Of a DNA stretch of 3,843 nt, positions 1-3,843 are shown in pieces. This DNA comes from Candidatus Babeliales bacterium. GTDB taxonomy: Bacteria > Babelota > Babeliae > Babelales > Vermiphilaceae. The notes below the pieces were generated by a model. It worked only from the letters and a program-made list of their open reading frames with translations, had not been told where the DNA came from and made no database searches. How positions within the stretch are numbered: position 1 is the first letter of the stretch; the number at the start of each line of letters is the position of its first letter. The translations under genes and the position numbers were made by a program. Where the stretch lies: contig JBIOKB010000065.1 in NCBI GenBank assembly GCA_044451405.1, positions 1 to 3,843 on the forward strand, written 5' to 3'.

Positions 1-58
1 GATATATATATGAATAAGATACGGGAGTGGAGAGCGCAATACAAAAAGGAGCTTAAAT

Positions 59-256
59 ATGACAAAATCTGCTATTAAATTTTCTCGTGATAAAAAAGGG
101 AACAAAGCGCGGGTGGTAATGCCTATCAAACAATTTGAAAAGCTTATGGATGAATTGGAAGAACTTAAGGATTTAGCTGATGTTTACGAGATAAAAAGTA
201 AAAATTTTAAGTCAATTCCCTACGAAAAAGTAAGAAAAAAGATTTTTAGCAAATGA
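59..256 (+). CDS. Putative type II antitoxin (RelB-like / Phd-YefM-related), 65 aa
   Basis: AGGAG RBS at 47-51, 7 nt before the ATG. The stop overlaps the toxin start (ATGA, 253-256). The pattern F-x2-D-x2-G-x4-V-x2-P-x-K-x-F-E-x-L-x2-E-L-E-E-L-x-D followed by a C-terminal 'IPYEKVRKKI' helix resembles small antitoxins found upstream of relE genes. Confidence 0.8.
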   Translation: MTKSAIKFSRDKKGNKARVVMPIKQFEKLMDELEELKDLADVYEIKSKNFKSIPYEKVRKKIFSK

Positions 257-534
257 AGCAAAGAAAAAGTTTCGAGGGTTATGCATTGGAGTTAGCACCT
301 TCTGCTGAAAAACAACTAAAAAAGTTGGAAACGAGTGTTGCCAAAGCTATTGATGAAAAACTAGAAGACTTGATTGAAGGGGTGCCTAATCTTGACATTA
401 GGAAGATGGAAGGTGCAGATGATACGTACAGATTACGCTGTGGTGATTACCGCGTGATTTTTGAAGTAAAAAAACATATCGTGACAATTTTGGTAATTAA
501 AATTGCTCATCGCAAAGAAGTATATAGAGATTAA
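253..534 (+). CDS. relE: Type II toxin-antitoxin RelE/ParE family toxin (RelE-type mRNA interferase), 93 aa
   Basis: RelE-family motifs: N-terminal 'Y-x-L-x-L-x3-A-x-K-x-L-K-K-L', 'RKMEG', 'YRLRCGDYRVIF' and C-terminal 'IAHRKEVY'. Typical size, translationally coupled to the upstream small ORF. Confidence 0.93.
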   Translation: MKQRKSFEGYALELAPSAEKQLKKLETSVAKAIDEKLEDLIEGVPNLDIRKMEGADDTYRLRCGDYRVIFEVKKHIVTILVIKIAHRKEVYRD

Positions 535-535
535 T

Positions 536-727
536 ATGGCTAAGAAAAAAAAATACCCTAAGATTAATCCTTCTTTTATTGAAGACCACAATGGAAAGAT
601 AGTTGAAGTGAGTTTTCCCTATAAAGTTTATGAATCTATTTTTGAAGAAATGGATGAATTAAAGGATAAAATATCTACGTTAAAGAAAAAAACAGTAAAG
701 AAGAAAACTGCAAAAAAGAGTATGTAA
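536..727 (+). CDS. Small basic protein, paralogue of the 59-256 antitoxin with a Lys-rich C-terminus, 63 aa
   Basis: ATG at 536 lies 1 nt after the relE stop (TAA-T-ATG), consistent with translational coupling, and is preferred over the 503 start in the ORF track. Residues 14-44 align without gaps to residues 8-38 of the antitoxin (12/31 identical). It ends just upstream of the terminator. Confidence 0.75.
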   Translation: MAKKKKYPKINPSFIEDHNGKIVEVSFPYKVYESIFEEMDELKDKISTLKKKTVKKKTAKKSM

Positions 728-733
728 GATAAT

Positions 734-767
734 AGAGCCCTTGAGAGTTAATTCTCAAGGGCTTTTT
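734..767 (+). terminator. Rho-independent terminator of the TA operon
   Basis: Perfect 11-bp stem AGCCCTTGAGA (736-746) / TCTCAAGGGCT (753-763), 6-nt loop GTTAAT, T-run at 763-767, starting a few nt after the stop at 727. Confidence 0.88.
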
Positions 768-1262: not shown

Positions 1263-3497
1263 TTAGTTAAAGTATTCTTCAGATTTTTCTTTGGTTTCTC
1301 GTGCAGGGTGTTCAAGCTTAACGCTCTGCTTATGCTCTTCAAATCCAAATTTGATAATCAAATCAATAAAATCCATAGGCTTAATGCCAATTTCAGCAGC
1401 TTGATGGAAAATGCACGTAGCTGGTGTCATGCCAGGCAACGTATTAACTTCAATAATAACAACCCGCTCAGCGCCAGTAGGGCTTTGCGCTGCTGATTGA
1501 TAAAAACAATCAATGCGCGCGTAGCCGCGACAGCCAAGAAACTCGTACGCCCGTTCCATAGTGCGTTGTACAAGCGTGAGTGTCTGCTCTGGTAATGGTG
1601 CTGGTGTCTGATTTTCACCAGCGCCCGGTAAAAATTTTTCTTCGATAGAAAGAATATCTGAAGCTGTTACGGTTTGACTTGGTGGTAACGCCTGAGGTTT
1701 TTCGTTACCAATGACGCCTACGGTAAGTTCCATGCCAACAATACATTCTTCAACGAGTGCATGGTTTTTACCATGAGCAAAGATAGTTTCAATATGGGTG
1801 ACAAGATCAGTAGTGTTGTTGGCTTTTGCAACCATGACGCTGCAGCCATCATCATGAGGTTTAATAATTGCAGGTAACCCAATAGTTGTTGTTATCGTTT
1901 CAAGTAAAGCTTCTTTATTGGTGAGCCATTCGTGGTGCGCAATCAGCAGGCCGCGCGGGACATCAATGCCCTTGCTGTGTAAAAATTGGGTAGTTTTGTA
2001 TTTATCCATGCATAATGAGCTGGCGAGTATGCCTGAACCATTATACGGTACCCCCAACATTTCAAGAGCACCTTGGACGCTGCCATTTTCACCAGCACCG
2101 CCATGAAGCCCAATAAACACAAAGTCAGCAATATTTGGGAGATCATTCCAGGCAACGTAAGAACTTTTATCAACCATACTTTCTATTTCTTTAGTTGAAT
2201 TGCGGACTAATAATGATTGATTAAGTTTGTAAAGCTCCATAGAGCTGCTTACAAACAGGGGAATAACCGTGTATTTGTGAGGAGAAAGTTTAAAGGTAAT
2301 ATTTCTTCCTGATTCCAATGATATTTCTCGCTCATTAGAATTGCCGCCCATTAATACGGCTACGCGTGTTTTATGTGTTTCCATGGAGGTCTGTTTTTCC
2401 TGGGTAGAGAACGTTGCAGTATCAAGCATGCCGTAGGCATGAAGTTCTGTTTCAATAAGATGATTTATAAGTTGTGTATGGCCCATGTTAATTTCAGCTG
2501 CTTCACGGAATAAAAAACTTGCAGGTCCCATGCCCGATAAGGTGTTTGGGTCAACAATAACAATCCGATTATCTTCTGTTACAAAGCCATCAATACGTGA
2601 AATGTTGGTGATACCAAGTGCATGCGTAGTTTGTATGCATACATCATGAATGCGTTGTATGGTGCGTGTATCACATCGAGCGGGAGTAAATTTCTGAGCG
2701 CGGCCGGGCATATATTTTTGTTCATAATCATAAAAATGGCTTTCTGGCTCAGGAACAATTTCTGTTGGTGGTAACGGTACTAATACTCCGCTATTGTAAT
2801 CAGTAATGGTAATGCATGAAAATTCCATACCACTAACTTTTTCTTCAATAAGAACTGATTGTGCTTTATGAGGATCAACAAAACAGGCACGCTTAAGTGC
2901 TTCATGAAGATCGTTAGTATCAAATACAACGGTGATTCCCAAACTGGAACCTTCTTGATGTGGTTTTACTACGTAGGGCAGGGGTATGCGTTCAGCGGCT
3001 AGCTGTTGTTCAATGCTGTGTTGGTAGATGTCAAAATCACGTACTTGATCAGGGGTTACCGTGATACTTGCAGGAACATCTATGCCATTATGCTTAAGAA
3101 ATTCTTTTTGCACCGCTTTATCCATGCACAGGGCGCTGGAAAAAACTTTAGACCCTAAATACGGAACACCAAGTATTTCTAAAAATCCTTGCACCGTACC
3201 ATCTTCTGCATATTTACCATGTACGGCAAGATACATAAAATCAATAAGCTCAGGTATATCATCCCAGGTAATGTGACGTGCTTGGGTAGCAAGGCGATGT
3301 TCAAAGTCAGCTATTTTTCCTCGATGCAAAAAGTGCCATGGCAATATATATAAGGTTCCAGCTGCGGTTTGAAAAATAGGAATGATGTCATAGCGAGCAG
3401 TATCTAAATGATCACAGACGGTGCGCCCTGAATTAAAAGAGACTTCCCGTTCAATTGATTTACCGCCCATTAAAACGCCGACACGAATTTTATTCAT
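1263..3497 (-). CDS. ddl: D-alanine--D-alanine ligase family ATP-grasp protein with two complete Ddl modules in tandem, 744 aa
   Basis: All Ddl signatures occur twice: GGxSxERE[V/I]S, HGxxxE[D/N]GxVQGxLExLGVPYxGS...CMDK, KPxxxG[S/C]S, EE...GME, omega loop (FYDYEQKY / ILSIEEKF), RID, [D/E]xNTLxGM. Module 2 begins at about M372 (2382-2384). A possible RBS AGGT lies on the minus strand at 3504-3507. Confidence 0.95.
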   Translation of the reverse strand: MNKIRVGVLMGGKSIEREVSFNSGRTVCDHLDTARYDIIPIFQTAAGTLYILPWHFLHRGKIADFEHRLATQARHITWDDIPELIDFMYLAVHGKYAEDGTVQGFLEILGVPYLGSKVFSSALCMDKAVQKEFLKHNGIDVPASITVTPDQVRDFDIYQHSIEQQLAAERIPLPYVVKPHQEGSSLGITVVFDTNDLHEALKRACFVDPHKAQSVLIEEKVSGMEFSCITITDYNSGVLVPLPPTEIVPEPESHFYDYEQKYMPGRAQKFTPARCDTRTIQRIHDVCIQTTHALGITNISRIDGFVTEDNRIVIVDPNTLSGMGPASFLFREAAEINMGHTQLINHLIETELHAYGMLDTATFSTQEKQTSMETHKTRVAVLMGGNSNEREISLESGRNITFKLSPHKYTVIPLFVSSSMELYKLNQSLLVRNSTKEIESMVDKSSYVAWNDLPNIADFVFIGLHGGAGENGSVQGALEMLGVPYNGSGILASSLCMDKYKTTQFLHSKGIDVPRGLLIAHHEWLTNKEALLETITTTIGLPAIIKPHDDGCSVMVAKANNTTDLVTHIETIFAHGKNHALVEECIVGMELTVGVIGNEKPQALPPSQTVTASDILSIEEKFLPGAGENQTPAPLPEQTLTLVQRTMERAYEFLGCRGYARIDCFYQSAAQSPTGAERVVIIEVNTLPGMTPATCIFHQAAEIGIKPMDFIDLIIKFGFEEHKQSVKLEHPARETKEKSEEYFN

Positions 3498-3590
3498 ATG
3501 CCAACCTGTTAGATCTATTAAAAAGTAATGCTTTGCTTAGGTTAATAGTTTATAGAGTGATGTAAAGAAAAAGACTATTCGTGTGTAATG

Positions 3591-3723
3591 TAAAAAACTG
3601 ATGCGCTAGTTATTTAGATGTTTTTATTTTCATGTAGCATAAAAAGATTGAAAATGCTTATAAGAAAAGCTTTAACAACATTAAAAAACTGATACACTCA
3701 AGTTTTTATTGGGGTAAAAAACT
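3591..3723. repeat. Repeated TAAAAAACT(GAT) motif forming imperfect palindromes in the divergent intergenic region
   Basis: TAAAAAACTGAT at 3591-3602 and 3682-3693, and TAAAAAACT at 3715-3723. Reverse-complement arms are AGTTATTTA (3608-3616) and AGTTTTTA (3701-3708). Confidence 0.5.
3671..3698 (+). promoter_or_regulatory. Candidate sigma70-type promoter for the 3753 gene
   Basis: TG-A-TACACT extended -10 (3690-3698) with -35-like TTTAAC/TTAACA at 3671-3677 (15-16 nt spacer). Confidence 0.4.
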
Positions 3724-3752
3724 ATAACAGATATATCAACATGAGGATACAC

Positions 3753-3843
3753 ATGAATATCTATAGATATATGCAATGCGCAGTAGTATGTTTGGGAATG
3801 CAGAGTTATGTAGGTGCTACGGAAATGGTGCGAGCTTCTAAAC
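3753..3843 (+). CDS. 5' end of a hypothetical exported protein (truncated by the window)
   Basis: GAGGA RBS at 3743-3747. The frame is open from ATG 3753 to the window end: MNIYRYMQCAVVCLGMQSYVGATEMVRASK, resembling a signal peptide. An in-frame upstream ATG exists at 3741. It is divergent from ddl and absent from the ORF track because it is short and partial. Confidence 0.6.
   Translation, partial: MNIYRYMQCAVVCLGMQSYVGATEMVRASK

Follow-up and report, generated by a model that had tools for sequence, protein, structure and literature searches.

In the usual account of how type II toxin-antitoxin (TA) modules are controlled, a single antitoxin both binds the toxin and acts as repressor of the operon. 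In the antitoxins RelB, YefM and Phd it is the C-terminal part that binds the toxin, and in the relBEF operon of Escherichia coli a third small gene, relF, follows relE and encodes a Hok-like membrane peptide. Arrays of TA modules in tandem occur commonly, as do orphan antitoxins. Three-gene systems with other kinds of third gene have been described as well: according to passages of PMC4926146 (see also excerpts of PMC4526809), SpoIISABC of Bacillus is a toxin-antitoxin-antitoxin system in which SpoIISB and SpoIISC arose by duplication and both bind and neutralise the membrane toxin SpoIISA. In omega-epsilon-zeta and paaR-paaA-parE an unrelated regulator gene lies upstream of the antitoxin gene, and some archaeal relBE antitoxins have no DNA-binding domain and show no autoregulation (both from passages of PMC8138530). 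Here we analysed a stretch of 3843 nucleotides (nt) with 38% G+C from contig JBIOKB010000065.1 of a Candidatus Babeliales bacterium, hereafter the window, which carries three small plus-strand open reading frames (ORFs) at its left end: a RelB-like antitoxin gene (A), a RelE-type toxin gene (T) and a gene for a basic antitoxin-like protein (A'). The interpretation that we put first, with roughly even confidence, is that A-T-A' is a conserved three-gene variant of the type II RelBE-like modules, in which A' is a regulator or modulator that acts through a module shared with A and does not neutralise T directly.

Homology of the two small proteins

A preliminary description of this DNA had reported a gapless match between the two small proteins, and the match was reproduced: A residues 8-38 and A' residues 14-44 align without gaps with 12/31 identities (BLASTP, E = 9e-7 in a single comparison). 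The Smith-Waterman score of the pair is 68, and shuffles of both sequences gave 32.7 ± 6.0, the top shuffle scoring 64 and 0/5000 reaching 68. When the alignments of the two families described below were compared with hhalign, a match with a probability of 98.4% was obtained (E 4.2e-15, 49 columns), which spans A residues 1-44 and A' residues 2-50. Since the shuffles never reach the observed score and the profiles match, the likeness is not an artefact of composition, and by these comparisons A and A' share a homologous N-terminal module. The matches of the single proteins to PF18506 (RelB-like) are weak. A scores 19.4 bits for a cut-off of 27 bits, with further matches to PhdYeFM (E 0.028) and to PHROG 2268 'antitoxin' (3e-5), and A' scores 17.2 bits on profile positions 1-29 of 62, reaching neither the same cut-off nor the profile's C-terminal half. 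Taken together, the weak PF18506 match of each protein and the match of the two profiles support the placing of both small genes in one antitoxin superfamily, which is the outcome of the Pfam and profile check that had been proposed.

A word-based homologue search returned no relative of A and two relatives only of A'; an exhaustive profile search was needed to bring out the families and returned 228 proteins (E ≤ 0.001). The classification of these covers, from the best 150 of the 228 matches as listed, the proteins shorter than 150 amino acids (aa), 146 in number, together with P0001-P0004, that is 150 proteins, and the classes were assigned by hidden Markov models (HMMs) from two seed sets. 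An A-type class comprises 106 of the 150 (approximately 69 aa, with a conserved C-terminal segment), an A'-type class 38 (approximately 59 aa, with a Lys-rich N-terminal arm and a Lys-rich tail, and forming 38 clusters at 50% identity), and 6 are ambiguous. The window A reaches 69.1 bits on the A-type HMM vs 21.0 on the A'-type HMM, and A', which is itself a seed of the A'-type HMM, reaches 96.6 bits on that model vs 39.2 on the A-type one. PF18506 was matched at E ≤ 0.1 by 36/36 A-type members (best 8.4e-10), PhdYeFM by 29/36, two RelB-antitoxin models of NCBIfam by 11/36 and 9/36, and a phd family model by 13; among the A'-type members 16/32 matched PF18506 (best 2.1e-5). Judged from its sequence, A is a small RelB-like antitoxin of the PF18506 or mini Phd-YefM type, composed of a dimerisation module (beta-hairpin and helix) and, behind it, a C-terminal segment; of these two parts the A'-type proteins keep the hairpin-helix module. 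No Pfam or NCBIfam family was found above cut-off for A' and its relatives, one of which is named 'hypothetical protein' at its source, and the A' family has in this way been missed by annotation. The Pfam scan found no DNA-binding domain in A', the tblastn search with A' gave no match in plasmids or in phages, and PDB sequence searches with both family profiles returned only coiled-coil noise or E > 0.6.

The match between the A-type and A'-type profiles stops at approximately residue 50 of A', and nothing in A' therefore corresponds to the C-terminal segment of the A-type proteins, in the place of which A' carries a Lys-rich tail. By analogy with characterised antitoxins, the segment that A' does not have would be the toxin-binding part. 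The net charge of the A'-type proteins is +9.3 ± 2.7, with an isoelectric point (pI) of 8.8-10.3 (32 members), and the positive charge is concentrated in the first 12 and the last 18 residues; the window A' has a net charge of +8 and a pI of 9.7. For the A-type proteins the net charge is -0.6 ± 5.0 (105 members). A tree built on 39 shared columns is poorly resolved, 107/148 inner branches being open. One of its branches, with a value of 92 in the Shimodaira-Hasegawa-like approximate likelihood ratio test (SH-aLRT), has every one of the 39 A'-type rows, and with them 3 ambiguous rows, to one side of it. The three A proteins that neighbour an A' are scattered among the A-type rows. Because of this branch and this scatter, A' is to be regarded as a member of an old and separate subfamily and not as a fresh copy of its neighbour. 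The third gene had been taken for a diverged duplicate of the antitoxin; the homology to antitoxins stands, but the simple local copying does not. Within the same collection of proteins, P0026 (774 aa), P0124 (198 aa) and P0132 (110 aa) hold 8, 3 and 2 stretches, respectively, of the hairpin-helix module per chain.

Recurrence and organisation of the module

Of the 88 stretches matched in a genome scan with an alignment of 5 A' sequences, 3 could be confirmed (L001, L002 and L003, see Table 1). Among the four loci for which both an A'-type gene and its DNA were available, the window included, A-T-A' is found in 3/4 and a lone A' in 1/4, and the synteny check proposed at the outset has thereby found the order again in two further genomes (L001 and L003). 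The toxins of these two loci pass PF05016 and share 54/89 (L001) and 33/85 (L003) identical residues with T of the window, and their A' proteins share 32/61 and 28/53 with the window A'. Across the 4 loci the A' ORF is intact, at 43-52% identity. The likeness of A to the A' of its own locus recurs in L001 and in L003, with 0/2000 shuffles reaching the score in either case. The junctions are equally tight, the T-A' spacer measuring 1 nt both in the window and in L003 and 3 nt in L001, and the A/T overlap being ATGA in L003, like in the window, and 11 nt in L001. The flanking genes are a pseudopilin-type gene and MlaD in L001, BacA/UppP and FtsK in L003, and an unassigned ORF and a double D-Ala-D-Ala ligase gene in the window. 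As the neighbours differ among the three loci, A, T and A' travel as a unit, and on the evidence of these loci A-T-A' is a conserved, mobile variant of the RelBE-type module.

Additional occurrences are suggested by the protein records. A contig of 2283 nt is given for both P0002 (an A' relative, 90% identity) and P0006 (a T relative, 76%), which would place the two on one shared contig. P0002, P0025 and P0030 have predicted extensions at the N-terminus that resemble an out-of-frame toxin 3' end, as in the window, and that may point to a toxin gene upstream of each. In L001, the 5' ends of A (3502-3547) and A' (3995-4040) are identical in 45/46 nt, including 6 nt before the ATG, and the remainder is diverged, a pattern that suggests gene conversion within this operon and an interchangeable N-terminal arm.

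The settings of the individual loci are as follows. The L001 module (3485-4205) is wedged in a host operon 23 nt past the pseudopilin gene, and an in-frame TTG, the candidate start of the next host gene, lies 1 nt past A'. In L003 (2911-3675) the ATG of A abuts the BacA stop, and ftsK begins 78 nt past A'. An AGGAG site of its own precedes the lone A' of L002, and all frames of the A' strand were free of toxin remnants over approximately 270 nt upstream; the gene is situated, in a locus of 46% G+C, between a membrane ORF and an opposite-strand MerR-family gene. The two-gene form, in which an A-type gene overlaps a RelE/ParE gene, is represented by one annotated example on a Leptolyngbya plasmid (L004, 1201-1664). 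This two-gene module is wedged into a type III-B CRISPR operon, with cmr4 on one side and the following operon gene on the other.

In the window, the coordinates of the three ORFs and the junctions between them were found as the preliminary description had given them, both in the sequence and in the ORF list. The stop of A and the start of T form an ATGA overlap (253-256), which places an antitoxin gene directly upstream of, and overlapping, the toxin gene; the TAA stop of T (532-534) is followed by a single T and by the ATG of A' at 536. Judging from this spacing, A, T and A' would be co-transcribed, and the translation of A' is probably coupled to that of T. A terminator common to the three genes had also been claimed, and a strong hairpin is indeed present: the 12-bp hairpin 735-764 and the T run after it are the sole terminator-like element downstream of A', with a folding energy of -22.9 kcal/mol (z = -4.87, 0/200 shuffles equally stable) and an inverted repeat, 736-749/750-763, that is 93% complementary. 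A consensus terminator scan placed the same hairpin on the minus strand only, so that it reads as a two-way element. The promoter scan gave no plus-strand promoter upstream of A, and an inspection of the 58 nt that precede A for inverted repeats revealed no convincing operator; the promoter and operator of the window operon are not judgeable, because the window extends no further in this direction.

The preliminary description had placed a RelE toxin in the middle of the locus, and the RelE/ParE family is borne out by three comparisons. T matches PF05016 at 48.3 bits (1.5e-12, cut-off 23 bits), PHROG 1213 'RelE-like toxin' at 3e-20 and, in the PDB sequence search, the structures of E. coli RelE at 4e-7. 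Among 16 relatives, residues R60, R62, Y66, R67 and R87 of T are invariant and Y91 is nearly so. In the alignment, these conserved Arg and Tyr residues stand at or beside K52, R56, R61, R81/R83 and Y87 of E. coli RelE, which we take to have catalytic roles. The Arg/Lys residues of a RelE-type active site and the C-terminal Tyr are, as far as the alignment tells, kept in T, and T has the appearance of an intact ribosome-dependent mRNA interferase of the RelE type, the Arg/Tyr site being preserved. Relatives of T were found by tblastn in 468 plasmid records, all with less than 60% identity, and the 20 listed are annotated as RelE/ParE or RelE/StbE family toxins. The net charge of T ranges from +2 to +17 in 17 relatives.

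Table 1. Positions of the module genes and associated signals in the window and in the other loci with an A'-type gene (MAG, metagenome-assembled genome).
Locus	Feature	Position	Strand	Length or basis
Window	Shine-Dalgarno-like AAGGAG, 7 nt 5' of the A start	46-51	+	read from the sequence
Window	A, RelB-like antitoxin gene	59-256	+	65 aa
Window	T, RelE-type toxin gene	253-534	+	93 aa
Window	A', basic antitoxin-like gene	536-727	+	63 aa
Window	Rho-independent-type terminator hairpin and T run, 8 nt past the A' stop	735-767	+	folding energy, inverted repeat
L001, MAG 'bacterium'	A	3508-3729		
L001, MAG 'bacterium'	T	3719-3997		
L001, MAG 'bacterium'	A'	4001-4201		
L003, MAG 'bacterium'	A	2914-3141		
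L003, MAG 'bacterium'	T	3138-3425		
L003, MAG 'bacterium'	A'	3427-3597		
L002, Candidatus Babeliales MAG	A', alone	4001-4174		

The remainder of the window carries genes of other kinds. On the minus strand, an ORF of 744 aa (1263-3497) encodes two complete D-Ala-D-Ala ligase units in tandem (Ddl-Ddl); the Pfam families Dala_Dala_lig_N and _C match twice each, and one half shares 33% identity with the other (117/354, E 1e-64). Such a fused double Ddl is unusual. Between the module and this gene lies a plus-strand ORF of 140 aa (839-1261), with a hydrophobic signal-like N-terminus and a hydrophobic stretch near its C-terminus, for which no Pfam, NCBIfam or PADLOC family was found. Past the start of Ddl-Ddl (3498-3843) there is an AT-rich spacer of 240 nt and then an open-ended ORF from 3741, the hydrophobic N-terminus of which contains a Cys and may be signal or lipoprotein-like.

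Predicted pairing and role of A'

The AlphaFold2 model of A', calculated with an alignment, has a mean predicted local distance difference test (pLDDT) of 89.3 and consists of the Lys-rich N-terminal arm, a predicted beta-hairpin (strands 13-16 and 22-26) and a single long helix (29-62) that ends in the Lys-rich tail. Foldseek gave 0 matches of this model to the PDB at E ≤ 0.001, and the fold is not placeable in this manner because a hairpin with one helix is too simple. A protein atlas search gave no usable feature, its structure neighbours (template modelling score ≤ 0.57) being uninformative and one row being a PF18506 cluster, and the PADLOC scan gave nothing meaningful.

T, A and A' were modelled together as three chains, an alignment being supplied for each, and A' was the chain scored. 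The score was 0.83 (0.83, 0.83 and 0.84 in the runs). Two controls in which the partner was replaced gave 0.00 each, and the best control, in which T was replaced and A' left in, gave 0.46. The mark set for this score is reached by 116/157 solved complexes and by 2/215 mismatched pairs, counts that are only rough for our own alignments and for three chains. Between runs at least 95% of the contacts are the same, and the partner has a pLDDT of at least 81. The confident contacts of A' (residues 7-12, 14-15, 22-29 and 32-53) are made with A residues 8, 15-23 and 26-47, hairpin and helix of the one protein meeting hairpin and helix of the other, and of T with residues 90-93 only. The model supports, but does not show, a position of A' on the dimerisation module of A, away from the body of T. 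The pairing of A with A' that had been put forward as a possibility is likewise supported by this prediction. The natural two-domain fusion P0132 was considered as a stand-in for A:A' and was not used, its single-sequence model being poor (pLDDT 64.1).

In the mechanism that we propose, A would neutralise T through its C-terminal tail, in analogy with RelB, YefM and Phd. A' would be made in step with T by translational coupling, and for that reason its dose should follow that of T. Instead of neutralising T directly, it would pair through the shared module, in mixed dimers with A and probably in homodimers as well. The mixed complexes would have one toxin-binding tail only, plus polycationic arms that could bind nucleic acid, and A' would be a regulatory third component that could serve as: (i) a co-repressor; (ii) a DNA anchor; or (iii) a setter of antitoxin valency. 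The binding of nucleic acid by A' and any regulatory effect are presumed here. More tentatively, and with some doubt, the data could be read as a distinct mobile tripartite RelBE class, in which a 'headless' paralogue halves the antitoxin valency, adds polycationic nucleic-acid-binding arms and is thus a built-in anti-antitoxin or regulatory subunit setting the threshold of toxin release, the family being also freed as a lone small DNA-binding protein in Babeliales-like bacteria.

Several points weigh against a regulatory A' that acts through A. The charge contrast between the two families is not clean, the window A being itself basic (+8), and the toxin-binding role of the C-terminal part of A is taken by analogy from RelB, YefM and Phd. 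The model cannot separate A:A' from A:A or A':A', because the modules are homologous, and it may simply reproduce the homodimer mode of homologous domains. The genomic contexts of A'-type genes come from 4 loci, and as the solitary A' of L002 is preceded by a ribosome-binding site of its own, the protein may do work that is independent of the toxin. From the upstream gene to A there are 23 nt in L001 and 0 nt in L003, promoter-like sites near the modules were not above chance and no operator evidence was obtained there; these short or absent spacers, together with promoter-like sites at chance level and the lack of a convincing repeat, argue against a classical co-repressor, as do the archaeal relBE antitoxins that have neither a DNA-binding domain nor autoregulation (passages of PMC8138530).

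Other explanations of A' were weighed on the same data. A' could be a small nucleic-acid-binding protein in its own right, nucleoid-associated or a general regulator, which rides with the module or beside which the module was repeatedly inserted. The orphan gene of L002, which has an AGGAG site and, over 270 nt upstream, no trace of a toxin, is in agreement with this, as are the extreme positive charge of both tails and the fact that no operator is evident at the modules; we nevertheless hold it unlikely, given the same T-A' junction of 1-3 nt at three unrelated genomic sites and given that A' is homologous to the antitoxin module and is predicted to pair with A. A' could also be a genuine second antitoxin, which would bind and neutralise T directly in a toxin-antitoxin-antitoxin system such as SpoIISABC. 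In favour of this are its homology to the antitoxin and its position, always directly after T where T is present. It would have a precedent in the duplicated antitoxin described in passages of PMC4926146, and A' does touch T residues 90-93 in the model. This possibility is quite unlikely in our view, for A' is without a counterpart of the conserved A-type C-terminal segment, it is strongly basic and T likewise, and the confident contacts of the model are nearly all with A, A' docking at 0.46 when T is replaced.

It is very improbable that A' is the functionless leftover antitoxin of a second, decayed TA pair (A1-T1-A2, with T2 lost), although orphan loci are mentioned in a passage of PMC6504116. 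No toxin or remnant follows A' at any of the loci, where the terminator in the window (8 nt on), the start of the next gene in L001 (1 nt) or ftsK in L003 (78 nt) is met instead, the A' ORF has been kept in the 4 loci and in the 38 clusters, and the whole family is without the toxin-binding tail. The explanation that merits the least credence, and that is largely refuted, is an artefact of composition between Lys/Glu-rich helical peptides, with ORF 536-727 being no gene at all. Both proteins are short and rich in these residues, their Pfam matches fall below the gathering score, and the profile also matches coiled coils of the PDB, but shuffles that preserve the composition do not reproduce the likeness, the profiles of the families match, the ORF is conserved in other genomes and its product is confidently folded with the alignment.

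If A' does modulate the module through A, a RelBE system would gain, in a third protein made of a dimerisation module and basic tails, a natural subunit of the dominant-negative or adaptor kind. The bacteria that carry the module have received little study and probably depend on hosts; one relative is in a Candidatus Babeliales genome. It is small and its parts are ordinary, and we consider its interest to be moderate.

Comparison with described systems

The bicistronic relBE-type modules with RelB-like (PF18506) or Phd-YefM-like antitoxins resemble the window in their small antitoxin gene, which comes first, and in the overlapping gene for a toxin of the RelE/ParE fold; the window differs by a toxin-coupled third gene for a truncated, basic antitoxin paralogue. 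In relBEF of E. coli a third small gene follows relE as well, and the difference lies in the product, A' being hydrophilic and antitoxin-like. A Hok-like analogue of relF was accordingly excluded for A', which has no hydrophobic segment. In the limited literature searched, in main article texts, we met neither an A-T-A' arrangement around a RelE toxin nor a TA-focused paper on Dependentiae. A context survey of the RelE/ParE superfamily gives other tripartite operons (ptuXYZ), and A-T-A' is not among the passages found in it (PMC11980606).

In omega-epsilon-zeta and paaR-paaA-parE, as in the window, the antitoxin may lack DNA binding of its own and a third small protein is proposed as the regulator (passages of PMC8138530). 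The third gene of the window differs in being downstream of T and homologous to A, and its DNA binding is presumed. The toxin-antitoxin-chaperone (TAC) systems are alike in that the third protein acts on the antitoxin and not on the toxin (abstract of PMC5105189), and differ in that this protein is a SecB-like chaperone; the Pfam scan gave no match to a SecB domain in A' and its relatives.

SpoIISABC shares with the window the number of three genes and the presence of two paralogous small antitoxin-like proteins. The preliminary description had held that no described three-component system includes a copy of the antitoxin, and this was mistaken, as SpoIISABC is such a system according to the passages of PMC4926146. 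The two nevertheless differ in the order of the genes, T-A-A in SpoIISABC and A-T-A' in the window, and in the toxin, which is the membrane protein SpoIISA in the former and RelE-type in the latter. They differ also in the partner of the second small protein, since both antitoxins of SpoIISABC are reported to bind and neutralise the toxin, whereas A' is without the presumed toxin-binding part and is placed on A in the model.

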